Positions 10,402 through 61,656 of a DNA stretch of 64,000 nucleotides are shown here, piece by piece. How positions within the stretch are numbered: the first letter of the stretch is position 1; every line of letters begins with the position of its first letter. The notes under the pieces are model-generated. The model saw only the letters and a list, made by a program, of their open reading frames with translations, was not told the origin of the DNA and made no database searches. The position numbers and the translations under genes were made by a program. Origin of the DNA: a virus; the IMG/VR virus record IMGVR_UViG_3300050343_000255, positions 42,358-106,357 of that record, one strand, 5' to 3'.

Positions 10402-10527
10402 AACTACTTTGCTACGCAAACTACGAGGTTTTCTATATACCTATCTTGTTAATCCTGGCTACGTAGCATCTATAGCCTATTTAAAAAAACAGTATATAAG
10501 CAGTAGCGTAGTCAGCGTAGTTTTTGC
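10402..10527 (-). repeat. Dispersed CTACG inverted-repeat element, copy A
   Basis: Reverse complement aligns with 52270-52391 and 61518-61656. Confidence 0.8.
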
Positions 10528-10579
10528 AGCTTTTATCTATTAGCTCTATGCTGAGTAAGCGTAGATGCATATATAGATT

Positions 10580-10858
10580 ATGGAATTCTCGACAGAGCAG
10601 CAATTGTTCCTGGCGATTCGCAGCCTCGACACCAAGCTCGACAGCGTGCTTCGTCGTCTCAACTCAGAAGAACAAGCAGAGTGGCTCGACACTAAAGACA
10701 CTTGCTCGATGCTTGGTTGCACCGACCGTCACCTCCGCAACTTGATGGCAGAGGGCACCATCGCTGGTGACTGCATCCGTAATGTCGGCACCATCAAACG
10801 TGCTCGTTACAAGTTTCACCGCAGCAAGGTTATGAGTCAGTACCTCAAGCGCGTTTGA
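10580..10858 (+). CDS. Excisionase-like HTH protein
   Basis: EWLDTKDTCSMLGCTDRHLRNL HTH; convergent with the integrase. Confidence 0.75.
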   Translation: MEFSTEQQLFLAIRSLDTKLDSVLRRLNSEEQAEWLDTKDTCSMLGCTDRHLRNLMAEGTIAGDCIRNVGTIKRARYKFHRSKVMSQYLKRV

Positions 10859-11950
10859 ACTTGTCGCGCTGCTTTTCCCTCAGTGCACGCATGTTTTTCT
10901 TGTTGATCCACAGGTGGTAGTGCTTTCTATGTGTCGTTTCTGAGTGACCCATCAGCCTTGCAGCAGTGCTGATCTCTATCCCCTGCACTAGCGATCGAAT
11001 CGCATAGGCGTGACGCAGGTTGTACAGCGGCCTGTGCTTGAGATTGTTACGTTCCATGTAATCGGAGTACTGCCTGGCGACGTTCAAGCGGTGGCAGGTG
11101 GGCTTGTGTATCTCACACAGGTTCAGCTCCTTGATCCATTCTTCTGGCAACGCCCAAGCTTCACGCGAGTAAGGCTTGCCCTTGGTTTTGTAAGTCATCA
11201 GATTGATTACGTCATCCTCGAACTCGACGCTCAGTAATTCGCTGGGCCTGGTGCCAAAGGCCATGCTCATGCCATGCACCCATTTCCAGCGTGGATCTTC
11301 GATGCTGCTCCAGATCGACAGCAGTTCCTCATCACTAGGAATGTCCCGCTCAGTGAGCTGAGAAATTGTGTAGCCCTTCTCGCCTCGAACAGTGGCTGCT
11401 TATCCCACTTCAGTCCCATGTGATCAAGGGTGACTGAGACGATCGAGCCGAAGTTTTCCCGACTGCTCGGTGACTCGATGTCCTTAATCACCTGGCAGAT
11501 CGCCTCTAGATCAGCAGCTCCATAGAACTTGCTGAACAGGCTGATCGTCGGTTTGTACTTAGCGGTGTAGATGCCCGCGCCTGTCTTGGGCTTGTCTGGG
11601 TAATAGGCATCGAAGCGTGCCTCGATCGCCTGGCACAGCTCTGTGAACAGGATCGAATCACGTGGAGCACTGCTTTTCTTTGCAGTGATCTTGTCTTTGC
11701 TCCAGTTGCTCCAGCTGAAAGTGCCCATCGAAAGCTCCTCGTCCAAGCGGAACGCCAGCTCTTTGGCCTTATCAGGTGTACTTAAATCGCTGGCCCTTCA
11801 GCCTGTCGGAATTTGCTGCTGCTTACGCTTGCTCGGCTCCGTTTTGCAGGGCAGTGTGGCGACTAAGTACACAGCCTGTCGATCTGGCAGGGTTTTGATA
11901 GCGCAACGGTCCAGCTTCTTATTGAGGAACGTGACCCAATTTCTGTCCAT
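10845..11950 (-). CDS. int: Tyrosine integrase (broken by frameshifts, probably sequencing errors)
   Basis: GTRPSE, YKTK, YNLRHAYA, LMGHS...HRKHY; fragments 10845-11279, 11267-11746 and an N-terminus from ATG 11950. Confidence 0.85.
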
Positions 11951-12065
11951 CACTGACTTCTCGGCTCCCCCGAGTATGCCCCAAACTCACTGATCCTGTG
12001 TACTTAAAAACCGTCTTAAATCCCTGGTTTTGGTGCCGGAACAGACCGGAACACAGGTGAACCAA

Positions 12066-12091
12066 TAAAAAAGGGACCCTTGCGGATCCCC
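12066..12091 (-). terminator. Terminator downstream of the tRNA fragment
   Basis: GGGGATCC-GCAA-GGGTCCC followed by a T run on the minus strand. Confidence 0.65.
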
Positions 12092-12123
12092 TGGTATGAC
12101 TGGTGTTTAAGTCGGTGACTCAA

Positions 12124-12172
12124 TCGGAGCGGCGGGATTTGAACCCACGACCCCTACTACCCCAAGGTAGTG
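12124..12172 (-). mobile_element. attP core: 3' half of tRNA-Pro(GGG)
   Basis: CTACC-TTGGGGT-AGTAG-GGGTC-GTGGG-TTCAAAT-CCCGC-CGCTCCG-A; no 5' half; next to int. Confidence 0.85.
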
Positions 12173-12256
12173 ACAATTCTTTATAAACCCGCTTCGTAAC
12201 TGGCTTTTGATTCGTCAATTTTGTAAATGTACTTAATTTTGTACTTAAGTTCAGAA

Positions 12257-12634
12257 TTAGCTGACGGCTGTAATTGCCGCTCCACGCAGGGGTACTCGGT
12301 AATCAGTGCCGACTTTCAAGGCAGCATCTGATGTAACGAAAATACGAGTGACGTATTTACGCTTGTCATCTCCGTCAAAGACATAGGCAGAGCCGTTCCA
12401 CTCCACTTTCAAATGTGGGTTGGAGTCAGAAACTGCGATGTAAACAGACTGGCTGTTGTCACTGTTGTCAACACGCACGCAGCCTTCGTAGATCGTGTTA
12501 TCCCCATTCCACCACCAACGTGGGACATTCCAATAATTGCGAGGGCGATCAGTAGTCCTTGGACTGACGAAAGTTAAGTCGCCTGATTGGTCCTCAAAGG
12601 AATGCAATCCTGTAATAGTAATTGCACCAGCCAT
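12257..12634 (-). CDS. Hypothetical protein, possibly virion-associated
   Basis: 125-aa beta-rich ORF ending the minus-strand run. Confidence 0.6.
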   Translation of the reverse strand: MAGAITITGLHSFEDQSGDLTFVSPRTTDRPRNYWNVPRWWWNGDNTIYEGCVRVDNSDNSQSVYIAVSDSNPHLKVEWNGSAYVFDGDDKRKYVTRIFVTSDAALKVGTDYRVPLRGAAITAVS

Positions 12635-12783
12635 TAACCTTTGCCTCGCTGCATTACTTTACGCATTTTCTTATCCTTGAAATCTTGAGCATCAGGTTCT
12701 TTAGATGCTTCTTTCATAGGTTCTTGTTTGTCCCCATCTCCATCAATATCAAGGAAATCAGGTTTCATGCTTTGTCCTGGCAT
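12634..12783 (-). CDS. Small protein with a DxDxDG motif
   Basis: MPGQSMKPDFLDIDGDGDKQEPMKKA...; stop-start overlaps on both sides. Confidence 0.6.
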   Translation of the reverse strand: MPGQSMKPDFLDIDGDGDKQEPMKEASKEPDAQDFKDKKMRKVMQRGKG

Positions 12784-13019
12784 CAGTCTTTACTAATAAT
12801 GTTTTTATAGAAGTTAGCCTTCTTCTTCATTTTAGATGATGCATCTGAATCATTTAAAACTTCATTAGCAAAAGCCTTACGTCCTTCTGGTGTATCTGGA
12901 TGTCCAGCTTTTGTTGCTGCAGCAGTGAAGGTTCCTTTAGTTCCACCTTTCTTGCCATGCGACATTTTCTTGAATGCTTTGGCTAAGCCTTTTGCCTGCT
13001 TGCGGGGTTCCTTTGACAT
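12783..13019 (-). CDS. Small Lys-rich protein
   Basis: KGTFTAAATKAG...KKKANFYKN. Confidence 0.7.
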   Translation of the reverse strand: MSKEPRKQAKGLAKAFKKMSHGKKGGTKGTFTAAATKAGHPDTPEGRKAFANEVLNDSDASSKMKKKANFYKNIISKD

Positions 13020-13274
13020 TACGAACGATGCTTAGAAGTTTTCTTGGCAACATCTTTAGGCTGCTTACTGAACTGCTGACCTTTACGAGCAGCAGCGCGT
13101 TTTTTAGCAGTACTTCTTGCATACTCTTCATCAGTCAAAGCTTCCCTAGCTTTCTTAGGCAGGTAGCGTTCACCAGTTGCTTTCTTGCCTTGAGTACTGT
13201 TTTTACCCTGACTTAGTACCCCAATCTTCTTTAGTCCAACTATCTAGAGAATTTTGTGATTTTGCTTTAGCCAT
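13019..13274 (-). CDS. Small Lys/Arg-rich protein (DUF5872-like), frameshifted
   Basis: SLDSWTKEDWGT...GERYLPKKA..AL..EEYA...QFSKQP. Confidence 0.65.
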
Positions 13275-13457
13275 TAGTCTTTATACCCGCCACCTTTGGC
13301 TTTATATTGCTTGGCTAACATCTGTGCTTTACGAGCAGACCACTGACCAGGCTTTCCACCTTTACCACTAGCTTTAATTTGAGAGAATAGTTTCTTACGC
13401 ATACCTGGCATTGTGTAATTGCCAGCTTCGTTGACTTTATGATTTCTTGTCAGCCAT
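13274..13457 (-). CDS. Small Lys-rich protein, frameshifted near the start
   Basis: NYTMPGMRKKLF...GGKPGQWSARKAQMLAKQYKAKGGGYKD. Confidence 0.7.
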
Positions 13458-13800
13458 CAGTCTGCTCCATCATGTATTCATCTGACCCTTCTTGATTATA
13501 TTCATTTTTTGGCATGCATTCATCGGTAATTGGTCCTCCATGCACCCAAGCATCACATGTACGATCGCCTGCACATTTAAATTTAAATAGCTGACAATAA
13601 CCAATGTTGGCATTCATGATGACCTTACGTGGATCAACGTATGGCTCTTCATCTGTACCAATGCCTTTGCCAATGCAGCACATGACTTTCCATGTCTGAT
13701 CGAACGCGGCACAGTTACCACAGCGGGTAGACTTTGCCTCTTCAACTGATGTATGAAAGATGTCTGCCTTTTGTTCCCAGAACTCATCGTTAGGGAAGGA
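13450..13800 (-). CDS. Cys-rich phage protein, frameshifted; 5' end uncertain
   Basis: RCGNCAAF and GYCQLFKFKCAGDRTCDAW in adjacent frames. Confidence 0.5.
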   Translation of the reverse strand, partial: SFPNDEFWEQKADIFHTSVEEAKSTRCGNCAAFDQTWKVMCCIGKGIGTDEEPYVDPRKVIMNANIGYCQLFKFKCAGDRTCDAWVHGGPITDECMPKNEYNQEGSDEYMMEQTDG

Positions 13801-14184
13801 CCATCGAAGGATTGTCCAATTTCATTCTTTGGAACATCTTGATAACCTGAAACGTGTCCTAAGTTCGCCTTGCGTCCTTGATAATTAAAATTCGAACATT
13901 TAATATTCAATTTAGTATTCAACAATAATAAGGCCGTGAACATCAGTACAAACGGCTGAGTTAGCGTAAAGAATTGCATTAATGAAAGAGTTCCCAGCCA
14001 CGCACTAATGACTTCACTACTTAGATGATATTAGCTGTAACCTCGTGACGTCTCTGATGAAATAACAACAATTACTTACTTAAGCTTCTGCAATTGCTTC
14101 TGCTTCTTCTAGCTGTGAGCTTCGCGCAATGAAGCAGCACCCATCATTAGGCAAACCTTGATAATCCTTTGTCCACAATCATTA

Positions 14185-14490
14185 GTCACCATTTTATGTG
14201 ACCAGTAACGTGCACTAAAAATGATCTGGCTTACTATCCTGTGCATTATGCCTAGCGTAGTAAGACTTCTTACGTGCTTTGTCTTTTGCAGACTTAGGAT
14301 TTTTACCAGCACCTTTTACGCCTTGCTGACCAAAACGGATGATCTTTTCTTTACCGTTTTTACAGGCTTTTACAACGTGTGATTTTGTTGCGTGACCTTT
14401 AGTACGCATTGGTTTATTGCACTTAAGTTTATCTTTGTCTAAGTGAGACTTAGCTTTTGATTTAGCTTTAGCGCGAGCAGATGCTGCCAT
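14185..14490 (-). CDS. Small basic phage protein; C-terminus frameshifted, end approximate
   Basis: KSHVVKAC...KIIRFGQQG...RKKSYYARH then SARYWSHK. Confidence 0.7.
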
Positions 14491-14511
14491 GTTATCTACA
14501 CAATCCTTCTA

Positions 14512-14649
14512 TTATTTTAACGGTTCTAAAGGATCAGATTTACCATCTACGATTGCACAAGCACGTTTATAAAAGAAATTATCTGTAGTACCTTTCTCCT
14601 CCATAACTTCTTTAATCTTTAGCCAATTAGCTTTTTCTTCGTCACTCAT
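14512..14649 (-). CDS. Small cyanophage-type hypothetical protein
   Basis: MSDEEKANWLKIKEVMEEKGTTDNFFYKRACAIVDGKSDPL. Confidence 0.6.
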   Translation of the reverse strand: MSDEEKANWLKIKEVMEEKGTTDNFFYKRACAIVDGKSDPLEPLK

Positions 14650-14918
14650 TGGTTAGCTGCAATGTGATCCATCTCTGCATGCATGAGGTCACTAAGGTTT
14701 GACACCTGAGCACAGCAGCTCATAATCAATCCGCGTTGATTAGGGGTGAGATTGTCTGCATCAATAGCATCTTCTGATAGCACTACTGCTACGTCACCTA
14801 GTGCCATGATGATTGCAGGCATTCCCCACTTTTCAACCAATCCAGACATTACAGATAGAAGTGGATTGTCACCACTTTCTACTGATTGCCAGAATTGTTT
14901 GCGTTCTTCCGCAGTCAT
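14646..14918 (-). CDS. Hypothetical protein
   Basis: 90-aa ORF with TACAATAG upstream. Confidence 0.6.
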   Translation of the reverse strand: MTAEERKQFWQSVESGDNPLLSVMSGLVEKWGMPAIIMALGDVAVVLSEDAIDADNLTPNQRGLIMSCCAQVSNLSDLMHAEMDHIAANQ

Positions 14919-14977
14919 AATTAGAGCCCTAAGTATTACTATTGTAGATAGAATACCTGTAGAGATATGTAGACATT

Positions 14978-15726
14978 ATGGCACAGATATCCGTAGAGAG
15001 TTTCAAGAACTTTTTTAAATTTTACGAAGGTGAAGCACATCAACAACTTGCTGTTGAAAAGCTATATAAGTTAATTCCGTTAGATGCATTAGAAAATAAT
15101 TGTGAATGGATTCTTCAGTATCGTGATCAACTGAAAGATCAAACGGTAGAAACAAAGCAGTGGCCCATCACTAAAGTGCAAATGGGACTAATCATGAACT
15201 GTAGTACTGAAAGTCTTCCTGACTCACTGATGGATGACTTTGCTAGATGCGTAGATCTATATCAAATGGATCGTTTGAGCATTGCATATTTCTTAGGTCA
15301 ATGCGGTCATGAGTCAGCAGGACTCAGATATCCAGTAGAAATTGCATCAGGTAAAATTACGAGGGAAGAGATGATTTAAATAATATTTATCGAGGTGATG
15401 GCGTCAAGTTTGCTGGAACTGGTTGGATTGCAAGTTACTGGCAGATATTGGCATCAGCAGTACAGTCAGACTATCTTCAGAAGAGTGAATTTGACGATAA
15501 AATTATGGAAGTTGGAAAGACATATACAAGTGAAAAATATCCGTGGTCAATTAGTGGATACTGGTGGCATGAAATAATATGAATGATTTTTGCAAAATAA
15601 AACCACCCGTTGATCAAGTAGGTCAACGAGTGAATGGTAAGTATTTACCTAACGGATATGAAGACAGACGTCGTATATTCTAAAAAAGCTTTTGAAGTAT
15701 TAGGTTTACCATATCCTGGTAATTAG
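14978..15726 (+). CDS. GH19 chitinase-like endolysin, frameshifted
   Basis: AYFLGQCGHESAGL, GDGVKFAG.G.LQVTGR, W..SGYWW, RVNG...NG..DR. Confidence 0.8.
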
Positions 15727-15794
15727 TCAAAAGTTACTTCGTCGCCTCTATCTAAATACCGGCACCACTGCCACAACAATGATTATCTTCAATC

Positions 15795-16267
15795 TCAGGA
15801 GTCTTCTGATTTCTCTGGAGCTTCTAGGTGTAACGGTGGCTCCCACTCTGAATAAGAAGCTGATGTAATATATGCAGCTAATTCTTCAGTCGTTGTTGTT
15901 GCACTGATGGCTTCACGTTTGGTGTCACAGTAAGTACGAATCTCACCACGACGATCAAGAACATCTTGAGGAACTGCTACTTCTGTTTCTTGCTTACGAA
16001 TGACATACCAATCGCTAGGAGCAAGCAATGTATATGCAGTTTGATTGGTGTTATTAATCCAAAGAGTAACTAGATCTTCGTGATCTTTCGGAAGCTCTGG
16101 ACCCCAGTAGAAGCGTTGGTCATACCAAGGAGCATCAGCAACTTCTGTAATTCCAATGGCTGTTTTTTCTTCAAGTGAAGCCAATCGTAGCCAATTAGCT
16201 GGATACTGAATTCATTATGTGTGAATGCACGATCGTAAGATAGTGGACGTCCGTCTAAGATAAGCAT
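15795..16267 (-). CDS. Tail-fibre assembly/chaperone-like protein, frameshifted
   Basis: LLAPSDWYVIRK...R.EIR motif; follows a fibre gene. Confidence 0.65.
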
Positions 16268-16312
16268 GACAATTTCTCTGATGTTACTATTTTAGCTATT
16301 TAAATTGATTAA

Positions 16313-19300
16313 TTAGTTACGTGCACGTGCAGTTTTGAAGGGGTTAGAAGCAAAAGCGATATATATGTAAGTATTTCCACTGCCATTGTTTCGGCTTGTA
16401 GAGCTACGTAACTTAAATCCATTGCTTAAAATATCATACACTATTAATTGGTGACACTATCAAACTCAGCGTCACTGGTATGTGGCTGAAGAAGTTTAGA
16501 AACACGTTGTCAGGATCACGAATCATTCACTGTCGTGAAGCATCCACATCTCAGTCGTATTGGTGCATCTCAAAAGCAAGAATGCAACTTTAAACCCGGT
16601 ATACACAAACGGACCATCAGTAGGATCCATTTCCAACGTACGAACCCATTGCGCTATAGCCTTCGACAGGTGAGAAGCAGTAGGCGATGTTAAATCACCT
16701 ATGTATCCGTTACTACTTGGAGTCCATGCAGAATCGGTACCATTTAACTTAACGTTTGTGGTTGAAGCTAAAGAACTATGTTTAACCATCCATCCTGTGA
16801 GTGACACAGCACTTCTGCTTTTTGTAATAACCATTCCAGGTGTAGCATTCAATCCGTGCGCAACTGTTGCCGTTGTATTTGTACCGGTATAAGTGCAAAT
16901 ACTGAACCCAGCACTTGGGTTGGCACGTACTGTTGATGCGATGCTTGGGACGTTGGGTACTGATACGCCGGAGTCAACTAAAGTTTTTCCTGCTACTCTA
17001 ATTCCATAAATTAAAATTCCAGCCGAACCTAAGCCCGCCGAACTATCGTGTGAAGATCCACCAAATTGAATTTCATTTATATCAGCAAATGATCCACAAT
17101 TTATCCAACCACGAGATGATGGTGTATCCGATGCTTTTGTTCCGTTTACATAAACATCATAAACACCACTAGAACTCCAACAATTTATTTCAAGAGTTCC
17201 GGAAAGTGTATAGCTTGTTGTATCCCAGGTGACGTACTGACCACCTGCATTATTATTAATATTGTTATCAAAATTGGCATCAAAGCCATAGGATGGAGGT
17301 TGAGCCCCGAAGCCGTTTCCAGAAGCAGTCCAGTTATTACTCCACGTCTGACTCTGGTCATACAACGAGCTATTTAAACTACCAGCAGCAATCGTTGTGT
17401 TGGAAGATCCGGCGTCCCACGCCCATGCTACGTGAGCTTCTCCAGAAGGATAGTTTGTGCTATTTTGCCCTATATCATCGCCTAATGTAAATCCGTTCGA
17501 GTCAAAAGAATTAAATGTACCTGTACCATAACCAGAACCTGATGTTGTGTGCTCAGCGTTTGTTCTGTTAGAGGATAGAAATTGATTTGCTCCCCGAACA
17601 ACATCAAACAATCCGTGCATTTGTGCAGACGACCGATTCTTAATCCATACAAACGATGGAGAAAACTTGTAACCTGTTACTGACAAGCTTGATGAGTTAC
17701 TTGTATATAACTTCGTATCAAAATACTGACTGCCATCCGCAATCGTTGGCTCAGGTAAGTTCGCTGTGCAAAGTGACTTGAATCCTGAAATGTTGTTGCT
17801 ATAGGCAAACGGTCTTTGTCCCCAATTTGAATGTATTTTTTCGGCGGCCGAAATTCCAACTGCAAAAACGTACGTCCCGGTCAATCCTGTAAAGGCCGCA
17901 TTGCTTCCCGAATCAGGGTCGCCTGAAGCAAACCATGTTCCATTCTTGCCCCACCAGATCTTGCCGTTATCTAAATCAACAGCCATCATTATTTTGTCGT
18001 TTAGCGACATCCCAGACCCGTAGCTAGCGTCACTGCTATTCGTCCGTTTTGCCCCGCTAAAGCAATTTAAAGCATAACTATTAGCAGTCATGCCGACAAA
18101 ATTATTACTAAAACTTGCAGGATTAAATTGATCGTTGTCTTCCGGCACCTTTTGGATGCCGATCATCAAACCACCGTTTTGGCTACCAACTGTGTCAAAT
18201 TCTGCGTACCATTTACCTGAAAACACTGCCATGGTTGATGCAATGTTTCTCCAGCCACTTGACCCAGAGCCACTATGAGTGACAGTTAAATTTGCTTGTG
18301 AAAAAGTCGGACCTGTAGTTGATAATGGATTCCAAGTGCAGTAGTTACCAACAACCTCACCGCCCGCTCCAGTGTCTGTCTGCGTGCCATTGGTTGGGGA
18401 GTCAACTAGGGAGTCAATTTCTGCGGGATCAGCAACACCATAAGACGCAATAGTCACTGCGCTTGACATCTGGGTGTATTGAATGAAGCCAAAATAAAGA
18501 TCACCCGTAGAAGGTAGGGAAAAGGAAGGAGTAGAACTTGTGTTAGTTGGGTTTCCACCTCCTACCCAAGAGCTTCCATTATGAGTAACCCATGCCTTAT
18601 GATTCTTTCTATCAATAACCCAGGTAAGGGTGTCAGTTCCTTCGGGGTTTGTATCACTAAAACCAGTAATACTTCCGCTGCCGTCTGCAACACCATTAGC
18701 AGTCGAAAAAGAGCCAATAGTGCCTAAGCTAGCTGTCCCTCCTCGCTGTCCGATACTATTTGTGCCGCGCCCTTCATTTGGGTGACTACCACTAAGACTA
18801 GTGCTGTTGGAGTCGCAAATAAACCAACCACCATTAGTGTCGCCGCCAGTCCAATATGTCGTAAAGCCATAAACTTTGTTGGTCTGCAGAAGACCACTAA
18901 ATACGTCGGCATAACCAGCTGCACTCATGGAGGCTGAACCACCTCCACTGGCTATCGTCCATTCTGAATCGCCTGAAGTCCAAACTGTGCTGCTGTCAGC
19001 AATGCCTGCACCAACAGAAAGATTATTAACAGTCCACGTATTGCTGTTGCCACTTGTGTCCGTACCAAGCGCAGCGTTTGAACTGTTGTCCGCAAAGTCG
19101 AGGTGAAAACCGTTTACGCCTGGAGCGAATACAGCTGGTGTGCCAGTTGGGCTTGCAAACGTACTTCCGTTAGTAGAAAACTGTAAATTTCCGAGAGCCC
19201 AACCATCACTCGCAGATACAATCTCAAATGATGTGATATTTGTAGAACTGATTGTTTCAGTTCTTACTGCATAACTACTGTTTGTAGTTAAACCAGAATG

Positions 19301-20931: not shown

Positions 20932-20994
20932 AATTAAATACTAGGCATCAATTCTCTAAACCTATTGTAGTAGATATTGGTCCTTACTCTACTT

Positions 20995-21505: not shown

Positions 21506-21511
21506 GATTAA

Positions 21512-23503: not shown

Positions 23504-23504
23504 G

Positions 23505-23981: not shown

Positions 23982-23983
23982 AA

Positions 23984-24539: not shown

Positions 24540-24648
24540 TATTGCACTCCCTGCAGGTCCATGACATCAACAATGTATCTTTAGTATATCGAAAATTGCT
24601 ATTCGACTTCTTCTTTGGTTTCGCTTTGATCTTTAACTTGATTGTTCC

Positions 24649-24795
24649 TTATTCACCTTCACCTTCAAACTCTAATGTGTCTATCAGGCTTTGTACTAGG
24701 TTCACACTAAATGCTAGGAGTGTATTGTCACCGCTAGCTCTAGCTGCACCGAATGAGTTAATAGCAGATATTAGATCTGTTTTTTTGCAAGGCAT
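24649..24795 (-). CDS. Small hypothetical protein
   Basis: MPCKKTDLISAINSFGAARASGD...EFEGEGE*. Confidence 0.55.
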   Translation of the reverse strand: MPCKKTDLISAINSFGAARASGDNTLLAFSVNLVQSLIDTLEFEGEGE

Positions 24796-52236: not shown

Positions 52237-52269
52237 GTCATTTTTAATACTGAATCAATTGTATCTAAT

Positions 52270-52391
52270 GCAAAAACTACTCTTGCTACGCTGTTTCCCT
52301 ATATTGTTTATTTAAAAAGGTAAGAGTAATAGGTAGCTAGGAATTAACAAAGGATATATACAAAACAAGCGTAGTTTGCGTAGTTCGTAGC
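52270..52391 (+). repeat. Dispersed CTACG inverted-repeat element, copy B
   Basis: GCAAAAACTAC..GCTACGCT...TATAT...TTTAAAAAGG...ATTAACAA...TATA.AAAAC..CGTAGTTTGCGTAG. Confidence 0.8.
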
Positions 52392-53083
52392 AAGGATTCA
52401 AACAAAGCAGCGTTGCCTCGATATTCCCACGATTGTCAACGTCCGCTCACACAGCCATATATAGTATGTACCCTAAGTTATGGGACATATACCCAAATTT
52501 AAAAGGGTAGGAGTCGGTCAATATTGACATATGGCACAAAAGAGTTCCCTATAGGACCCTAAATTAGTTAGAAAATTTTCGACACGTCTAATCCCTTCTG
52601 TACCCCGGTAACCGGTGGAACAAAAAAAATATACACACGTTTCACATGTGATTAACATTTGTTTTGAACACAAGTAACAACAGAAGGATTCAACTCAAGT
52701 TAACAACAGTAAAGTTTACACATAATGTTTCACATTTGTTTTACTTATGTTGTAACAGTTGAGTTCTTACACACGTCACGTTCGCTTTACAGAAGTATCA
52801 CTTTCGTTTATAGGAACATCTGTCGTTGACGTATGTGTATACATTGTTCCCCTGTGAAATTCATGGGCGTCATTTCGAGTCACACGATGACTACGATACA
52901 CGAGAGCTGGAATGTAACACAATGGCGTCAATGACGCCTCTAATTGTGTTCTTTATGTGTCACACATGCAATCACATGATCGGTCTTGTTCACTTAGCTG
53001 GCTATTTACCTTGTCCAGATTGGTACACAATGGCGTCAATTGACGCCTCTATTTCATTGTGTTCTTTCGATACTAAGTATCTC

Positions 53084-53419
53084 ATGCGTAAACTCGCTAC
53101 CCTTACCAAGATGACTGCCAAAGGTCTGTCAACTTGGACATTCGCTCAATGTGACAGTGTCTACGTCGCATTCGGTGGTACTACTAACCGATGCAGAGTA
53201 TTCACTACACATGCACAGCTTCAGGACTGCATGCTCAACTATGCGTCCTATGGCTATCAAGTAGAACGTCATACGACCAAGCGTCGTTGGGACGGAGCTA
53301 CTCCTAAGCCTATTAAGCGTGTACCACCATCAATGCAGCAGGAGCTTGCACTACTTGAGACTATGACTCAAGAGACTGCTCCCCGTCCTGCAGAAGATAC
53401 CTTGGTGGCACTCTATTGA
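53084..53419 (+). CDS. First early-region hypothetical protein, ends LVALY
   Basis: ATG shortly after the repeat element. Confidence 0.6.
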   Translation: MRKLATLTKMTAKGLSTWTFAQCDSVYVAFGGTTNRCRVFTTHAQLQDCMLNYASYGYQVERHTTKRRWDGATPKPIKRVPPSMQQELALLETMTQETAPRPAEDTLVALY

Positions 53420-53498
53420 GCAACAAGAGTCTTGGCGTCTATCGACGCCTTTCTCTTTCTATGCCCTTTTGGGCTTATTCACTTATTCGTTATCACTT

Positions 53499-53753
53499 AT
53501 GCGTATCAAAGTCCCTGGTCAAGATTTCAACGTCCGTCTCTTCGAGCGTGTTGAAACTGTTGACAACCAGTACGACATCTTCGATGTAGGCATCGAGCAA
53601 GCTGATGGCACTATCGACAGTGTCTGTGTCGGTGGTTCCTTTGCATATGCCAAGTCACTCGTCAAAACTATTGATGAGAAGGCTGAGCAAGCTAAGGCTT
53701 CCAAAGCTAACGAGCCTCTCGTCGCCGTCGCGCCTCCCGCCTCTGCGGCTTAG
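53499..53753 (+). CDS. Hypothetical protein
   Basis: ATG after the repeat element. Confidence 0.6.
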   Translation: MRIKVPGQDFNVRLFERVETVDNQYDIFDVGIEQADGTIDSVCVGGSFAYAKSLVKTIDEKAEQAKASKANEPLVAVAPPASAA

Positions 53754-54029
53754 CGCTTGACGCTGTGTCCACCGCTATTGCGGGGGCTTTTTTCATTTGT
53801 CCTTTACATCTGTATCACCAATGTTAAGTCCATTCAAAGTGATCTGTGCATTCAGAGAATCTCCTCTGTCATTGATGCACTAGATCTATCATTTGATGAC
53901 TATTCCAACGACCCTACTGCCAACTATTACTGGCGTAGGATGCTCACTCGTGCTATAACTCCTTACATTCTGTACTGAGTTTCGATTACACCCAAGGTGG
54001 CACTCGAACATGGCACAAATGTACTGTTA

Positions 54030-54386
54030 TCACATAAGTGATATCTGACCGGACTCCTGTTGGTCTGCGGGTCCTCCGAAGCCAGCAGCAATATCCATAA
54101 CTCCACGACCTGCTAAGGCTACGCCTGCGGCTGGAATTATGTATTTGGGGACTGTACTAGCTACTGGAAGTGCATACTCCATAGCTGTTTGTACAGCTCC
54201 CCCAGGTCCGTCTATCTCTCCCTTACGTAAGGAAGGGTGACCACCACCTGCAATTACTGCAGCAGCTTGAACAGCTGGGTTAGCTCCCTCGTACATCTTA
54301 TTGATACGAGTGGTGTAACCATCATCAAACTCACGAAGTTTGTTGACAATACTGTTCAGCATGTCACCTGCCTTACGTCTATCCAT
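54030..54386 (-). CDS. Inverted hypothetical gene starting MDRRKAG
   Basis: TACAATGA about 20 nt upstream; Gly/Ala-rich. Confidence 0.6.
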   Translation of the reverse strand: MDRRKAGDMLNSIVNKLREFDDGYTTRINKMYEGANPAVQAAAVIAGGGHPSLRKGEIDGPGGAVQTAMEYALPVASTVPKYIIPAAGVALAGRGVMDIAAGFGGPADQQESGQISLM

Positions 54387-54873
54387 ATCCTTATCCTGTT
54401 TTATACCTCATTGTATCTACATGTGGGATAACTAACAGTTACTATTGAATTGAGATTATTAACATAATGGCACCTATACTTATAACTATATTGATGACTA
54501 CCTTGGTCAACAATGTTTCCCCGCTGATAAGTACTCCAACCCGTCCTTTGAACGTGTGTGAAGAGATCGGTATCGAATTACAACTCGCTATCGATGCTTC
54601 CGTACTCACTCCCAAAGAGGCTCAAGGAATACTTAATCGCTGTTACGAACTACAAGAGTCACAAGAACCTGATGGTCTATACGTACGTCATAATCCTAGG
54701 TACATGGGGCATAGCCTCAGTCGTACTGCTACTACTTAAGCTTCTATAGCTTATTGAGAACTATTATCAACTATATATAGAATGGGTATTCACTACTCCC
54801 ATTACCGTATATACCGTTGCCTGTCCTATGAATTACATAGGTAAATTAGGGGAGCGGTATATATAAATAAGCA

Positions 54874-55113
54874 ATGTCCGTATTTGACCTTATGAGCCCA
54901 TTTGATCCATGGCTGACTTCACGAAGTCCGTCCGTTTATGTTATATCTGATTCAGAAATGAAGGCATATAAACAGAAACAAGCAGTCGCGGAAATCGCTG
55001 AACTGCAACGGCTAGTCGATGGTCACAAGAGTTCTATTGAACGCCTTGAGACACACATCAGCCAACTCGAAACAGAGCTTCCAAAGCTCACCGAAACATC
55101 TAATGCCGCATAA
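54874..55113 (+). CDS. Small coiled-coil protein
   Basis: VYVISDSEM...coiled coil; structured leader upstream. Confidence 0.65.
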   Translation: MSVFDLMSPFDPWLTSRSPSVYVISDSEMKAYKQKQAVAEIAELQRLVDGHKSSIERLETHISQLETELPKLTETSNAA

Positions 55114-55321
55114 CTGCGGCTGTAGATATAAATGTTCAATATATAGAAACAAGCAGTGATTGTCTTCGATCAAACTACCATCATTCTCGCTGTAATCGGC
55201 ATGGTTGGGCTCCTCTCCACAGGAGTTGTCCTAACCACAGCATTCAAGCGTAGACCTTTGAGTTAGTAACACTGGCGCTTATCAGCGCCTGTAATTACTT
55301 ATGTCCTTTGGATATTATTCC

Positions 55322-55519
55322 ATGACTACTATCACCAGCCGCAAAACAGCTGAACTTAAAGCCTTTCCTCCTATTACAGACACCGTTGTCTGGATTAAAC
55401 AGGTGGATTGGGCAGACGTTCGTCAACGCTGCCGTGGCGGAGTTAACAACGTCGGACTTGTCCTCGCTGTAACTGGTGAAAAGATCCATGACCTTGGCGC
55501 TTGGTTAGCTGAGGTCTGA
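55322..55519 (+). CDS. Hypothetical protein
   Basis: ATG after the repeat element. Confidence 0.5.
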   Translation: MTTITSRKTAELKAFPPITDTVVWIKQVDWADVRQRCRGGVNNVGLVLAVTGEKIHDLGAWLAEV

Positions 55520-55640
55520 TCTATCTGGGGATAACAGTGTGGGAGCTCTGCGTTTCGCATGACGAGGCATGACAACCCCAGAGTGCACAAGATTGCCGCT
55601 TAATCGCGGCTTTCTTTTTGTGTACTCTTTGCAAGATTAC

Positions 55641-56159
55641 ATGAACGCTATTGCTTCAACTCACTACGTAGGTATACACCGTACGTCTCCATCTAAACAA
55701 CGCATCGTGCATGCGTTTGACTTGGACGACACTATTACGATCAAGCCTGATCACTTCAACAACATAGGCATGACCAAAGACGAGTTCTTTGATGCCTCCA
55801 GGTCATTCAAACCTGATGACCGTGTTGTTGATTTACTACGGATGATGCATCAGTGGGGCGATTCAATCGCTATCTGCACTGCTCGTCCATCCGACAGGCT
55901 CACTGAATCCTATAACTGGCTTCGCAAGTGGTCTATTCCATTCGATTGCATCCTTGTTTCCACTGGTGTGGACAACAGCGGTAATACCAAGCAGCACATG
56001 CTTCAGTATTTACGCAAGCAATACCGGATGGTTGGCACCCTTATCGATGACAGTCCATACAACATTGAAGGTGCACGCCTTCAGAGGATCAAGCGTATCC
56101 ATGTACTCAAGAATTGTGAGTACTGGGCTGCCCATCCTGAGAGCGTGGTCAAGGTATGA
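55641..56159 (+). CDS. HAD-superfamily phosphatase (PNKP phosphatase-like)
   Basis: FDLDDT, ICTARP, K, IDDS. Confidence 0.8.
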   Translation: MNAIASTHYVGIHRTSPSKQRIVHAFDLDDTITIKPDHFNNIGMTKDEFFDASRSFKPDDRVVDLLRMMHQWGDSIAICTARPSDRLTESYNWLRKWSIPFDCILVSTGVDNSGNTKQHMLQYLRKQYRMVGTLIDDSPYNIEGARLQRIKRIHVLKNCEYWAAHPESVVKV

Positions 56160-56510
56160 AGTTAGTTCTCTATTTCCTTCTAGCCTTCTACTTCAATGCA
56201 GAAGCTACATCCATAGGTCTATGCCTACTACCTCCACTTAGTGGGACGGTTAAGCATGACATTTGTTCCGATGAACAATAGCCGCTAACTCGCGGCTCTC
56301 TTTTCTCGTGTCCAATGAATTGTCACTATGACTGATGTACAACTACGTGCTGCTGCTCGCCTTAAGGCTGAACTCCTACGTCAGACTAAAGAGCGAGTAC
56401 GTGACGCCTATTACCTGCGTAAAGCAGGGGTCATGACAGCCATCGTGTGAACACTTGAGGGTCGCTGACTCGCGACTCTCTTTTTTAGTGTTCTTCAAAT
56501 CGAATGCTTA

Positions 56511-56720
56511 ATGGCAATCACCTACGACTTCACCATTGTTGCTACCAACATTACTGGTTTGTCTAAGGTGGTTCCTCAGAACGAAGCTGCGTTCTGCTAT
56601 CTCGTAGATGAAACCGATTACACCGTCTTTGCTGACGGTTCCACCGCTCTATTCCAGGAGCGTGTCGGTGACTTTATCTCCGATGCAGGCCACGCACACA
56701 TGTGCTGCGATATCGCTTGA
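56511..56720 (+). CDS. Hypothetical protein
   Basis: ATG after the repeat element. Confidence 0.55.
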   Translation: MAITYDFTIVATNITGLSKVVPQNEAAFCYLVDETDYTVFADGSTALFQERVGDFISDAGHAHMCCDIA

Positions 56721-56780
56721 GTTGACCACCACTGGCGCAAATTTGCGCCTTTCTCATTTTTTGTAATTTAAGAGGTTTAT

Positions 56781-57173
56781 TTGACCCAATCTTTCAACGT
56801 CCCTGATGGCATCTCTATGGATGAGCTTACGTCTCATCTTAAGGATGCGCCAAATGAATCAGATATTCACGATGAGTGCACCTGTGAACGTGCAGAAAAT
56901 ACAGAAGATCTTATGGAGCTTGCTTCAGAACAGATCGCATTAACTGGACGCATGACAGATGATCCTGTTGCATTCCACAAAATCATGATAGTCATGATCA
57001 TTTCTAACATGATCGACTTTCACATGAATGTTGCAACTAAATCAGGTGGAATGGATGACGATACATCTCAAGCGTGGATTCGTGACGCTGGCAAATTACA
57101 AGCAGTCATGAACATCCTTACGACTATCTCATGTGGTCCTGATGACCCATATGTAACAGCATCCTGCAACTGA
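56781..57173 (+). CDS. Hypothetical acidic protein
   Basis: GAGG ribosome-binding site with TTG start. Confidence 0.6.
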   Translation: MTQSFNVPDGISMDELTSHLKDAPNESDIHDECTCERAENTEDLMELASEQIALTGRMTDDPVAFHKIMIVMIISNMIDFHMNVATKSGGMDDDTSQAWIRDAGKLQAVMNILTTISCGPDDPYVTASCN

Positions 57174-57234
57174 TTGCCTCAATAGCCGCTTAACAGCGGC
57201 TTTCTTTTTACATGTTCTTTATCAAAGGTTTCCT

Positions 57235-57720
57235 TTGAACAACACTTCACCTCGCTACGCTCAGTTCAACGCTCTCACCGTCACCGGTCGCATCTTCAAT
57301 GCTGAGATCGTGGACAACAAAGGCAACAAGTTCTTGAGTGTATCCGTAATCAGCACTGCCTCCAAGGATGGCGCTGACTTGGTCTACACCTTCAACAACT
57401 CCAATGGCTTGATGGGCCTCTTTGAGAAGGGTTACTTCTGCAAAGGTCGTCAAGTCACTATCACTGGACACCTTCACAACGTCTCTGAGGTCTACACCAC
57501 ACAGACTGGTGAAGTTCGCATGCGTAAGCGCCCTGAGATCCACCTCACAGGCGTAAACGTGCTTGATGGTGGCCTTGGTCCTATGCCTAACGCAGATGGA
57601 CAAGCACAGCGTCTCTCAGCAGGCACTGTCATCACTCAAGTGGGAACACCTGAGGTTGACGAAACTCCATCTATGGAGCCTGTTGAAGAAGCAGAAGAAG
57701 AGCTTGTAGCTCTTTATTGA
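57235..57720 (+). CDS. ssb: Single-stranded DNA-binding protein (OB fold)
   Basis: N.LTVTGRI...KGRQVTITGHL...Y....GE.R; acidic tail. Confidence 0.75.
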   Translation: MNNTSPRYAQFNALTVTGRIFNAEIVDNKGNKFLSVSVISTASKDGADLVYTFNNSNGLMGLFEKGYFCKGRQVTITGHLHNVSEVYTTQTGEVRMRKRPEIHLTGVNVLDGGLGPMPNADGQAQRLSAGTVITQVGTPEVDETPSMEPVEEAEEELVALY

Positions 57721-57728
57721 TAACAACT

Positions 57729-57767
57729 CCCGGCCGTGTATCCCACGGCTGGGTTTTTTCTTTTTTT
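57729..57767 (+). terminator. Intrinsic terminator
   Basis: CCCGGCCGTG-TATCC-CACGGCTGGG followed by a T run. Confidence 0.85.
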
Positions 57768-57800
57768 AAACTATGGACATCGCAATCTATCTAACTATCT

Positions 57801-58049
57801 ATGCCACGTTCGCAATCTACTGCTACGTCCTCACCAAAGTCCAAGAGGACTGATTGGACATACACCCTAAGTAAAAGCAGGTATGGGTTATACACATCTA
57901 TTCTTACTGACGGCACCCGAATGGTCACTGGAATGACAGAAGAAGGTGTTCGTGTAGTTACGGACACTATTCACATCCCTGTCATGAAAGGTGAGTTCGA
58001 TGGATACACATCAATACCACGTAAGGGTGTAGTGGACGGGAAGCTTTAG
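57801..58049 (+). CDS. Hypothetical protein
   Basis: 82-aa ORF. Confidence 0.55.
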   Translation: MPRSQSTATSSPKSKRTDWTYTLSKSRYGLYTSILTDGTRMVTGMTEEGVRVVTDTIHIPVMKGEFDGYTSIPRKGVVDGKL

Positions 58050-58954
58050 TGCTTGCCGTTCTTGCCGTTACCGTTGATCGCCTTATTCATGTAGACCTTG
58101 TCAGCAATGACAGTGACTGCCTTACCTTGGTCAGATGTATTGACATCACCCTGAAGTGCTTGACGGTATGCATCTAAGACAGACTTGTCTGCAAATCGTT
58201 TGTCATTAAATCCGTAATTCATTGCACGACCTTCCTGTTTGCCAACCATATTTTGAAAATCTTTGTACTTTAATAAACGTTGAATATCAACGTCATCTAA
58301 TACTTTACTATTGTATAACCCAGCAGCATTAATACGACGACGTGCACCGTCAATTAACTCAAGTCGTTTTGGACCTTCAGAATCTCCAAGCATTTGATTG
58401 ATTAATGATAATTCTGGACGCAACCTAGTACCACCTTGACTATTAGATTCTAAATGTCCTTGATCTTGTGATCTACCAATGATTGGTGCATCTGTATAAA
58501 GATCTCTTCCATATGAGCCTTTGTATAGCAACTCTTTTACAGCATCAACCTTTGAATCACGATTGCCTGCAGCCTTGCCATGCAATCCTCGTGTTGCAAG
58601 CATTTCAAGAGATTGTCCGTCTAATAAATTAGCCAATATCTCTGCACGTTCATAATCTAAATCATTTGCACTTGGATTTTCTCCTGCAGATAACTCTCTT
58701 TTGCCTGTTTTTATAAAGTCTTTTTCAACTCGCTCTGCAGCATCAAGAGCTTGCATGAGTAATGAAGGTGTATAAGCTTCTGCTTCAACAGCTTCAACTC
58801 CTAATGAACCCTCGCTGCCAACCCGAGTAGACGATAAATCAGCAATATTTCCTGAGTTATCACGTACAAATTTTAAATTAGACGGTGCCAGTAAATCACG
58901 TTCAATTGCTTTCAACGAATAATCATTATTACTGTTTAAATTTCTTGCACGCAC
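58046..58954 (-). CDS. Inverted hypothetical gene with a possible HNH-like segment
   Basis: GRDLYT...DQGHLESNSQGG...INQMLG; TAGAATAG upstream. Confidence 0.5.
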   Translation of the reverse strand: MRARNLNSNNDYSLKAIERDLLAPSNLKFVRDNSGNIADLSSTRVGSEGSLGVEAVEAEAYTPSLLMQALDAAERVEKDFIKTGKRELSAGENPSANDLDYERAEILANLLDGQSLEMLATRGLHGKAAGNRDSKVDAVKELLYKGSYGRDLYTDAPIIGRSQDQGHLESNSQGGTRLRPELSLINQMLGDSEGPKRLELIDGARRRINAAGLYNSKVLDDVDIQRLLKYKDFQNMVGKQEGRAMNYGFNDKRFADKSVLDAYRQALQGDVNTSDQGKAVTVIADKVYMNKAINGNGKNGKH

Positions 58955-59066
58955 TCATACACATACCTATGATTATTAATTCACATAGATATCACTTACT
59001 TCAATATCTATTCTATTAATTATTAATTACTAACTAATATATTTAGAAGCTGCTAACTAATATCTA

Positions 59067-59516
59067 TTGCATAAATCTTCGGACAAACGTAAGCAAAGTA
59101 AATATCAAGCATTTCACTATTTGTTAAAACAGCTTGCTGACTTTTATAAAGATGCAGATGAAGCAGCTCAACAGTTGCTAGAAACAACTGTGGGTGCAAC
59201 GATCTTCTATCTACCTACCCGTAAAAAGCTTCATTACTCAGGCATGATTTCTGCTGAAGCGTTGGAATCTGGCAAAGAAACTCAAGAACATATGTTTCCA
59301 CGCAAGATTGCAGCAACAGCTTTACTTAAATCTGTGCCTGATACTGTTCAACTATTAATTGACAAGTGTGATGGTCTGTACCTCAGGTATCACATCGTCA
59401 CACCTTCACAGAACAAACAACTATGTCCCTTTCAAAAACACGACGTATTTGTTAATCCTGAAACTGCTTACTTCAAAGCAGGTATTCAGTTGATTAACGA
59501 TCCACGGCTTGCATAA
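59067..59516 (+). CDS. Hypothetical protein, possible His-Me-finger-like motif
   Basis: EHMFPR...IVTPSQN. Confidence 0.45.
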   Translation: MHKSSDKRKQSKYQAFHYLLKQLADFYKDADEAAQQLLETTVGATIFYLPTRKKLHYSGMISAEALESGKETQEHMFPRKIAATALLKSVPDTVQLLIDKCDGLYLRYHIVTPSQNKQLCPFQKHDVFVNPETAYFKAGIQLINDPRLA

Positions 59517-59570
59517 GATTTGCCGCTGACTCGCGGCTTTCTTTTCTCGTGTCCTTTGACATCTAGATCT

Positions 59571-59792
59571 ATGGAACAACAAATGATCCTGATCTCTAAA
59601 CCAGAAGTTGAAAGGTTGCTAGGCAAACTTCAACGAGCAGAAGGCTATTGCCGTAATGCACGTTCGTCTACTCCTTTCAATCCTGAAACGGACATCCATG
59701 CAGAACCGTGGGAGTTCTTTGTCGGATCCTCTGGATTCGCAGGAGCTGTCATGCGTGATGCAATTCAATCACTCGAATCACATCTGAACTAA
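59571..59792 (+). CDS. Hypothetical protein
   Basis: ATG after the repeat element. Confidence 0.55.
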   Translation: MEQQMILISKPEVERLLGKLQRAEGYCRNARSSTPFNPETDIHAEPWEFFVGSSGFAGAVMRDAIQSLESHLN

Positions 59793-60229
59793 TGGGAACT
59801 CGATCTGCTATTGGCTATCTACAACCGTCCGGTTCCGTCCGTGCGGTTTATTGCCATTGGGATGGCTACCCAGAAAATCAACTCCCGATACTGAAGTCGA
59901 GGTACAACACTCTCGCCAAAGTAAAGGCTTTGATTAAACCTGGGTTTATGTCATGCCTAGAAACTACCCACACGTGGGAATCTGAATACCAGCGTGATGC
60001 CAACGGTAAAGCATTATTTGATTTACCACAGACACATAGCCGTGAACCACAACCTCTGTATCACGCAGAGCGTGGGCACGGTGAAAAACCCAAAACCAGT
60101 GGCAATGCCTTTGATTACTGGCGCGATATGGATTGTGAGTACTTGTATGTCTTTACTGGCACTTCGTGGATTACTTATTCACTACGCGACTCACCTCATA
60201 CACGTATGCATATCCATGATGAAACCTAA
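59792..60229 (+). CDS. Conserved phage protein of the YCHWDGYP type
   Basis: MGTRSAIG...VYCHWDGYP...EYLYVF. Confidence 0.7.
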   Translation: MGTRSAIGYLQPSGSVRAVYCHWDGYPENQLPILKSRYNTLAKVKALIKPGFMSCLETTHTWESEYQRDANGKALFDLPQTHSREPQPLYHAERGHGEKPKTSGNAFDYWRDMDCEYLYVFTGTSWITYSLRDSPHTRMHIHDET

Positions 60230-60408
60230 CCCATCTAAGTATATTTTTACCTAGTATGGATTGGTGTTCCCGTAGAAGAACAGCGGCAGGGACACTCAAT
60301 TAGGTTTCAGGCATTTTTGCTGTTTCTGTCTGAGTAATTAACCGGGTCGCCCCTTTTGGTGGCTCGGTCCCTTACTCGATCACATATATACACTCAAAAA
60401 GATTCACC

Positions 60409-60702
60409 ATGGCTAATTACACAATCGAAGTCACTACTGAAGATGGTGGCAACTTTACTTTCCCTTGTGAAAGTGACCAGTACATCATTGAAGCTGCAGA
60501 AGAAGCAGGCGTTGAACTCAACTATTCATGCCGTGCTGGTGCATGCTCAACCTGTGTAAGCAAGCTTGTGTCTGGCACTGTTGATCAATCAGATCAAAGC
60601 TATTTGGACGATGACCAACAAGCAGAGGGCTTCTTTATGTCCTGTGTTGCTTATCCAACCTCTGACGTAAAGATGATCTCTGATGTTGAAGACCAACTCT
60701 GA
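60409..60702 (+). CDS. petF: Plant-type [2Fe-2S] ferredoxin
   Basis: YSCRAGACSTC...VDQSDQSYLDDDQ...CVAYPTSD. Confidence 0.97.
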   Translation: MANYTIEVTTEDGGNFTFPCESDQYIIEAAEEAGVELNYSCRAGACSTCVSKLVSGTVDQSDQSYLDDDQQAEGFFMSCVAYPTSDVKMISDVEDQL

Positions 60703-60868
60703 CCTAACATTTATGACTGAACAACCTGACAAGTTCCCCTTCGACGACATCGAAGAACTAGAACGTGAAGAAGATGAGCTCCCTGCTATCCCTGCATGGC
60801 CCTCTATCTTCGAATCAAGCATCCTTAATAATTAAGTAAAATATCCATAGCATCTAAATTTATTAGCT

Positions 60869-61508
60869 ATGGGTAAGAAAAAAGATTTTGATAATTTCAG
60901 AAATCGTTTTAATAGTACTGGCAAAGTAGGCAAAAACGAATTTAGTGTTGACGGCAAATCCTTTGACTACCGTGATCCTAAAAATCTAGAAAATGCACAA
61001 GTTGGATCTAGAGGTGATCGTGGCATTAGAGACGATCAAAAATATAATCCAAATGCGTATGACTATACTGATCCTCTGTACGATTATTCAAAGGGAGCGG
61101 TACGTGATGCTGCAAAAGCACTAGGCATTGGTAATGTCAATGAAAAGTCTGAAGTAAAGCAAATCCTCAAATACATTCAAGATGTTCCAGATAAACCAGG
61201 AAGATGATAAACCAAAAGAGTTCTTGAAAAGATATATTGACAAGAAAGTGTCTCCTGCTGAAAACGAATCCACACAAGCAGAAGTAGAAATCCCCTCTAC
61301 TCCTACTGCGTCAGGTGATGGCAGTATTAATTCACCAATCTCACAAGCTAGTCCTATAAACATTGATGGCAATCGAAATAGTGTTAAGCAAAATAATGCT
61401 ATTTCTCAGGAAATTGACAATTCAACTGATAACTCAGACAACAGCTCCAAGATTTTTTTAGATAGCTATAAGCTCAATCTTGGCGATAAATTTAAAATGT
61501 TTGCTTAA
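60869..61508 (+). CDS. Hypothetical protein (frameshift near 61200); shares a block with 40645-41572
   Basis: GDGSINSPISQA block. Confidence 0.55.
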
Positions 61509-61517
61509 AATCCCCTT

Positions 61518-61656
61518 AAAACTACAAAGCTACACTTGCTACGCTACTTTTCCTATATGTGCATTTTTAAAAAGATAGTAATAAGAGAGGAGACTGCGTA
61601 ATAAAAAAAGATATATATAGGGAACTTGTGCGTTTTGCGTAGTTTACGTAGTTTGC
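61518..61656 (+). repeat. Dispersed CTACG inverted-repeat element, copy C
   Basis: AACTAC..GCTAC.CTTGCTACGCT...TATAT...TTTAAAAAG...TATATAG...TTTGCGTAGTTTACGTAGTTTG. Confidence 0.75.

Follow-up and report, generated by a model that had tools for sequence, protein, structure and literature searches.

In the phage DNA analysed here, a mirror-image cassette of about 130 bp, made of GTAG repeats spaced 9 bp apart and of TATA-like boxes, occurs at three genome sites (A, B and C). This DNA, hereafter "the window", is a stretch of 64,000 nucleotides i.e. the last 64 kb of the 106,357-bp IMG/VR virus record IMGVR_UViG_3300050343_000255. We interpret the three copies as back-to-back promoter-operator cassettes bound by the ribbon-helix-helix (RHH) protein or proteins encoded downstream of C, an interpretation to which our analysis gives about an even chance of being right.

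An earlier note on the letters of the window had described three stretches as copies of one element. All three lie where it placed them and align over ~130 bp with a mean column identity of 72%; the 14-mer CGTAGTTTGCGTAG is, as it said, identical between A (10412-10425, minus strand) and B (52370-52383). The local alignment of A with B scores 87, against 16.8 +/- 2.4 in 500 dinucleotide shuffles (z 29). Those of B with C and of A with C reach 69 (z 18) and 32 (z 5) respectively, dinucleotide shuffles giving ~17 +/- 2.5. The top score obtained with 124 AT-rich control windows drawn from the same window is 26, below all three copy pairs; thus the copies score far higher than shuffled or AT-rich control DNA. 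Clusters of CTACG/CGTAG with a spacing of at most 12 bp number seven in the record, six of them within elements, for 0.35 expected from Markov simulations. An nhmmer profile of the copies run on the whole 106-kb record (E = 3e-37 for A) returned only these element sites, with neither further copies nor half copies.

The profile hits five sites for three genome sites because the record covers ~1.3 genome lengths and joins two variants: B' and C' are the orthologues of B and C in the second variant. The first 25 kb of the record are 85-96% identical to its last 24.4 kb, window positions 39566-64000 corresponding to record positions 1-25000. This puts the genome unit at an estimated ~81.9 kb, and the record is made up of ~1.3 units from two variants. 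The overlap is probably an assembly wrap-around across strain variants, not a true terminal repeat.

To compare the arms, every element was cut mid-way, its left half was reversed and the halves were lined up on the first GTAG. The set comprised ~34 distinct element sequences from many related IMG/VR contigs, found by pattern search, by protein-anchored searches and with a sequence-only model (genomes and contigs are referred to below by G and L numbers, respectively). Both arms of these elements align as one module with a constant distance between box and iterons. In order, the module consists of an A/T tract of ~10 nt (10-15 bp), GG or CAG, a TA(T/G)ATAG box, 8-9 nt, and a (C)GTAG array. The box is usually TATATAG, and TTAGATA in one arm of the G002-type A and B copies; the spacer behind it is often AAAAC followed by 2-3 nt. 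Each module carries two to four (C)GTAG boxes and the array often ends in a T run. The regular unit spacing proposed in the earlier note is borne out, and its value of 9-10 bp is to be corrected to 9 bp (8-9). Over 166 units the GTAG core is preceded by C in 64% of cases and the three bases after it are T-rich.

The stretch between the arms measures 55-74 bp (mean 63) with a GC content of 24-42%. Its first half is pyrimidine-rich and its second half is 74% purine, which is again a dyad. Its centre is variable: a palindrome of CTAC abutting GTAG in the G000-type A copies (CTACGTAG in A of the window), G runs in the G002-type copies. The arms are inverted, with palindromic junctions (CTAC-n-GTAG), and the short boxes occur in both direct and inverted orientation. 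The span from arm to arm varies continuously between 80 and 104 bp, and no period that would indicate helical phasing of the arms was found among these spans. The arms are the same module in mirror image, TATA-like box included, and face outward. Instead of the note's inward-facing iterons around an unwinding core, the element is thus better pictured as a back-to-back pair of modules, each made of a box and its iterons and each pointing away from the centre. An Rfam search of the window gave no family match for the element; the only hit at gathering level was a glutamine riboswitch (glnA RNA, 45.9 bits) at 6707-6768 (plus), which precedes a 76-aa ORF.

The element sites are heads of transcription units (Table 1). 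A and B each lie between divergent genes and C lies ahead of the RHH genes. On one side of A, the 47-aa gene is the first of a minus-strand operon, with HNH and nblA-like genes among its members; on the other side is the xis-like gene. The operon upstream of C closes, in G002, with an intrinsic terminator located at C's left edge, and the 3' half of the terminator hairpin with the T-run is also found in G003 and G004. With a terminator directly before C, a new transcription unit must therefore begin at C.

The phage also contains ~20 copies of a late-type box, TAnAATAG, many of them ~20-30 nt upstream of genes and mostly on the minus strand. The cassette box is a relative of it, shorter by one base. 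Solitary TATATAG boxes in the early region are oriented toward the genes that follow. Because of this likeness to the late-type box, and of the orientation of the solitary boxes, we favour an outward polarity for the cassette boxes.

Table 1. Coordinates, in the window, of the three cassettes, their parts and associated features.
Feature	Position	Strand	Remarks
Element A, whole cassette	10402..10527	-	between 47-aa membrane-protein gene (10230-10373, minus) and xis-like HTH gene (10580-10858, plus)
A module 1 iterons	10404..10425	-	three GTAG boxes (minus-strand reading), 9/8-bp period, facing 47-aa gene
A module 1 box	10428..10441	-	GGTATATAGAAAAC on minus strand
A central palindrome	10458..10467	.	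10 bp, two abutting boxes (CTAC, GTAG)
A module 2 box	10490..10501	+	TATATAA, facing xis
A module 2 iterons	10502..10520	+	CGTAG x2 and AGTAG
Extra solitary CGTAG and TATATAG box	10560..10576	+	3 nt ahead of xis start codon
Element B, whole cassette	52270..52391	+	divergence of minus-strand late genes (from 52197 down) and plus-strand early genes
B left module	52277..52306	-	CTAC boxes at 52277 and 52286; box 52299-52306; outward on minus strand
B central quasi-palindrome	52332..52341	.	GGTAGCTAGG
B right module	52353..52390	+	box 52353-52366; CGTAG boxes at 52370, 52379 and 52386
Element C, whole cassette	61518..61660	+	~190 bp upstream of RHH gene pair; left edge is mosaic breakpoint between the record's two variants
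C left module	61522..61561	-	CTAC boxes at 61522, 61530, 61539 and 61544; box 61553-61561
C right module	61610..61660	+	box 61610-61625; degenerate first box; CGTAG at 61638 and 61647; CCTAG at 61656
RHH-1	61852..62199	+	115 aa, RHH N-terminus and conserved His/Cys cluster; candidate iteron-binding protein
RHH-2	62196..62513	+	105 aa, RHH-1 paralogue, gene overlap 4 nt; candidate iteron-binding protein
TAnAATAG late-type box, example sites	5800, 7042, 9529, 20969, 35838, 41607, 51331		

An RHH gene lies downstream of C in every lineage checked, and this position is the strongest link of the element to a protein. In G000 to G005 there are two overlapping paralogues, each combining an RHH N-terminus with a conserved cluster of His and Cys residues. 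G006 has a 50-aa RHH protein and G008 one of 64 aa, while G007 has an 80-aa protein of the ParG family (PF09274, 25.6 bits for a cut-off of 21.4) together with a 50-aa RHH protein. The RHH domain, starting at residue 1, is common to the two protein types (hhalign 89.7%, E 2e-6). The AlphaFold model of RHH-1 is of moderate confidence for residues 1-60, and nearly all the matches listed by Foldseek for this model are RHH proteins, none of them significant. Seven residues are invariant in both paralogues (H40, C46, C68, C73, C76, H78 and C82 in RHH-1 numbering), which suggests a metal site in the C-terminal half, where the confidence of the model is low. In G008, HNH-endonuclease-like ORFs are inserted between C and the RHH gene (L077:468-901). 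Among 30 ORFs neighbouring the elements, no other DNA-binding domain was detected besides the xis-like HTH. The latter is unlikely as a universal binder: its close homologues were found in only some of the element-bearing genomes, and G004 has no xis beside A.

The layout is conserved among relatives. Each of the seven genomes rated 100% complete (among them this one, G002, G004, G005, G006 and G008) has exactly three copies in a common B-C-A spacing order: ~8-13 kb, then 27-30 kb, then the late region. Absence of the element from syntenic positions in relatives, which the earlier note had named as a refuting outcome, was thus not observed. The less complete records G001 and G003 give two strong hits each, and G007 four. 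The genes flanking the elements are common to the three relatives compared (G002, G004 and G005). Among relatives the cores of the elements diverge beyond alignment while copy number, order and flanking genes persist.

Between the two variants of the record, C is kept at 98.6% versus 96.7% for its right flank, and B at ~97% (BLAST) versus 92.6% for the homologous segment around it; when realigned globally, B gives 93.5%, a value lowered by a 2-nt offset in the compared slices. The DNA left of B and of C is unalignable between the variants, the homology at C beginning exactly at the first repeat. The elements are also mosaic joints, because the homology between variants breaks at the left edges of B and C.

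The terminase of this phage shares 56% identity with its counterpart in Synechococcus phage S-EIV1. The gene content (an integrase, a DNA polymerase fragment in a split arrangement, an nblA-like gene, a ferredoxin and the glutamine riboswitch) matches an uncultured marine cyanophage lineage described by Flores-Uribe et al. (bioRxiv 10.1101/325100), a work in which repeats, promoters and attP go unmentioned. A search of named phage genomes gave no DNA match, and S-EIV1, the nearest isolate, has neither the element nor a homologue of the RHH genes. Hits in genome collections were short phage contigs in metagenome-assembled genomes (MAGs) of several unrelated phyla and yielded no host or att site by prophage-based assignment. 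Contigs of the lineage (L049-L055) sit in MAGs that carry labels such as Proteobacteria, Bacteroidetes and Planctomycetes, almost certainly by mis-binning.

From the observed anatomy, conservation, positions and RHH gene slot we propose the following mechanism. The TA(T/G)ATAG box would be a -10-like promoter element and each box would start an outward transcript. The GTAG array, which would cover the start site together with the initial ~30 bp, would be an operator accommodating one protein dimer per box, and the protein would most likely be the RHH protein or proteins of the genes directly behind C. Early in infection all three cassettes would fire outward from both boxes. RHH protein would then accumulate, coat the GTAG arrays (and the central palindrome where there is one) and shut or retime all three cassettes, thereby repressing its own promoter at C; we infer repression rather than activation. 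The units under control would be the early operon and the first late-side genes at B, the RHH regulators at C, and, at A, xis together with the accessory minus-strand operon that contains the nblA-like gene. Two options of the earlier note agree with this proposal. Its nucleoprotein sites fit the arrangement of short boxes in arrays; its genome-wide switch fits as a transcription switch, given the location at heads of transcription units and the RHH gene behind C in the lineages checked.

Several observations weigh against this proposal. On the promoter side, a sigma-70 consensus scan scores no promoter inside the elements, and TATATA lacks the conserved final T of the -10 hexamer. Transcription from the left module of C would run antisense into the gene before it, the TTAGATA variant takes the place of one box of A and B in G002-type genomes, and downstream of B and C there are other promoter-like motifs at a further 45-90 bp. 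On the protein side, the residues with which the RHH proteins presumably read DNA vary by lineage (K-Q-Q and R-D-K versus R-T-L/M), and GTAG does not change with them. The binder of GTAG may therefore be a host factor or a different conserved protein of the phage. No covariation between iterons and RHH reading residues could be obtained, GTAG being invariant.

Arrays of short boxes at phage and plasmid promoters, under the control of a small repressor, are well known; the present sequence family and its dyad layout with three copies per genome are undescribed. In the immI region of phage P22, the products of two adjacent RHH repressor genes, arc and mnt, control divergent promoters and shut off an early burst. 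The omega repressor of pSM19035, another RHH protein, acts at about three promoter regions, on short heptad repeats that are contiguous and may point either way. Both systems differ from the phage cassettes in repeat length and layout, and neither has a 130-bp dyad cassette repeated round the genome. A further parallel is the RHH repressor Reg576 of the Bacillus pumilus plasmid p576, whose heptamer boxes recur every 9 bp (heptamer plus 2 bp) and take one RHH dimer each, some promoters having an inverted second pair on their far side; it acts at four promoters, including that of its own gene, and times an expression burst after DNA entry (Val-Calvo et al. 2018, PMC6294495). Short boxes, the 9-bp period, direct and inverted orientations and several dispersed sites, which in the phage are putative promoters, are common to Reg576 and the phage. 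In contrast, the Reg576 box is TTATCCC and not (C)GTAG, its promoters are canonical sigma-A promoters firing in one direction whereas the phage has a dyad of two modules without recognisable -35, and the protein is no close relative of the phage RHH proteins, for which binding is predicted only.

The boxes can also be read inward. The GTAG/CTAC repeats would then be activator sites over the -35 of two convergent promoters of the type activated by lambda CII, with the inward box (TATACT, TATATT) as -10. This alternative we consider unlikely. The inward reading does give good TAnnnT hexamers in A and B, and it places the repeats at about -35 and -26, at a constant distance. The lambda CII promoters pRE, pI and paQ are three sites per genome, one of them by int/xis; the phage likewise has three sites, one by int/xis, and short direct repeats that keep a constant distance to a -10-like box. 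However, the CII sites are single repeat pairs straddling the -35 of one promoter, not mirror-image arrays, and no CII homologue was found in the phage. In the left modules of the G002-type A and B copies the inward "-10" becomes CTAACCC with the repeats kept. Two promoters 55-65 bp apart and firing at each other would have no obvious product, the core is unconserved, and the solitary and late boxes face their genes in the outward sense.

A somewhat lower probability goes to the copies being replication origins, either iterons flanking an unwinding region, as in the P4 ori/crr or archaeal ORB pairs, or promoter-primed as in T7 and T4, whose origins are promoters beside an unwinding region. The inverted repeat arrays do flank A/T tracts, and the replication module of the phage resembles that of T7. 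If transcription ran inward, the core half copied last would be the purine-rich one (74% purine, in some lineages with G runs), which would favour an RNA-DNA hybrid. The slope of the cumulative GC skew shifts near C and near A, in a skew that is weak and confounded by gene orientation; the GC-skew comparison was uninformative as an origin test. Like the phage, P4 encodes a primase-helicase and has short repeats, direct and inverted, at more than one site. But P4 ori and crr lie beside the alpha gene and are bound by the C-terminal domain of alpha, whereas none of the three phage copies adjoins primase-helicase or polymerase genes: the nearest, A, is ~4.8 kb from the polymerase (4273-5598), and B and C are in the early region. 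In addition, the A/T tracts are only ~10-15 bp long and the centre is often G/C-rich with G runs, and S-EIV1, which has its own annotated primase and family-A polymerase, is without the element. The multiple origins suggested in the earlier note keep some plausibility because origins of the T7 and T4 type are promoters; they are weakened by the number of copies, an iteron-type origin being usually single in its replicon, by the distance from replication genes, by the short A/T tracts with an often G-rich centre and by the uninformative skew.

Less probable still is a signal at the RNA level. Six outward transcripts would start with a GUAG-repeat leader, either bound by protein or acting on RNA polymerase (antitermination, stability or translation control). 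The fixed distance between box and repeats would set the repeats at the extreme 5' end of the transcripts, and in G002-type genomes the right arm of B is followed by a hairpin whose loop is conserved and whose stems vary. The repeats nevertheless form no RNA structure themselves, the palindromic junctions (CTAC-n-GTAG, CTACGTAG in the middle of A) suggest that a symmetric dimer recognises duplex DNA, and RHH proteins are DNA binders.

We regard centromere-like or looping sites, where a ParG-like RHH protein would coat and bridge the three arrays or partition a plasmid prophage, as highly improbable. The protein behind C in G007 does belong to the ParG family, above the Pfam cut-off. ParG of plasmid TP228 binds its OF operator and the parH centromere with one RHH dimer per 4-bp ACTC box at an 8-bp period (Wu et al. 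2011, PMC3130281). At the ParG centromere, short boxes of either orientation form an array, and ParG sites share with the cassettes degenerate 4-bp boxes with regular short spacers, direct and inverted. They differ by the 8-bp period, by the single long array of 8-20 boxes and by the partner, the ATPase ParF: no ParA/ParF-type ATPase was found in the 106-kb record (PF13614 and PF01656 without hit, controls positive). A ParA-driven partition site is thus rejected, and the segregation system put forward in the earlier note is unsupported. Moreover, the phage carries an integrase and a probable tRNA-type attP, not plasmid maintenance genes, and the continuous range of arm-to-arm distances (80-104 bp) leaves no strict helical phasing.

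The copies might instead serve recombination, as attP arms or as a site open to inversion or resolution, or they might be mobile, as a miniature inverted-repeat transposable element (MITE) is. This reading would account for A adjoining the integrase module, for its canonical box facing the opposite neighbour in G002 and G004 compared with G000 and G005, and for the coincidence of the left edges of B and C with mosaic breakpoints of the two variants, but it can hardly be correct, as the copies are only ~72% alike and always at the same three sites without target duplications. A MITE or other mobile element is rejected on these same grounds, the positions being fixed at three per genome rated 100% complete, with no flanking duplications seen. 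A true inversion of A between genomes is indistinguishable from the differing decay of one of its two boxes. As for attP, it is probably at window 11770-12250, where a tRNA-Pro(GGG)-like 3' part (12124-12196, minus; Rfam tRNA 21.2 bits, below the family threshold) is accompanied by five flanking TGTACTTAA repeats. A itself is rejected as attP: the tRNA-like core is 1.6 kb away, and unrelated integrases stand beside the same element. Indeed the two tyrosine recombinases adjoining A in G005 and G004 are unrelated, with 25% identity over the last 53 residues only.

Some neighbouring features are recorded here in their own right. The tyrosine integrase (10845-11954, minus) is in at least two ORFs in this genome and in G002, and in one 369-aa ORF in G005; the split is either a frameshift or an assembly error. 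G004 has in the slot beside A its unrelated tyrosine recombinase of 281 aa (L021:658-1503) and no xis, and the stop codon of this gene overlaps the last repeat. Near the elements are the nblA-like gene (8508-8843, minus; below the Pfam cut-off), a SET-domain ORF (9692-9982, plus) and a 2Fe-2S ferredoxin gene (60409-60702, plus). A noncoding block of ~110 bp (52545-52650), 150-250 bp downstream of B, is almost invariant across otherwise divergent lineages; RNAalifold detected no covariation in it. The hairpin of the G002-type copies stands directly after the right arm of B (L022:1625-1660, L056:13790-13820 and others), its stems differing and its loop, GACTCCAAA, conserved.

Two larger roles may be considered, although we hold them to be rather improbable: the cassettes could be promoter-primed starts of bidirectional replication, or the three anchors of a ParA-less scaffold of ParG-like RHH protein. 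If true, such an RHH scaffold would fold the genome into early, replication/metabolic and late domains, and would offer a preferred joint for the exchange of modules between phages.

Returning to promoter-operator cassettes, the elements and the RHH slot together would make up a concrete regulatory circuit open to testing, the first for this lineage, with a DNA motif, few candidate proteins and likely controlled genes, i.e. the early operon, xis and the nblA-like operon. Gene regulation has so far been undescribed for this widespread, uncultured and possibly temperate lineage of marine cyanophages with an integrase, a split DNA polymerase and nblA. The cassettes also mark points of module exchange between variants, and thus provide landmarks for annotating and comparing these phages.

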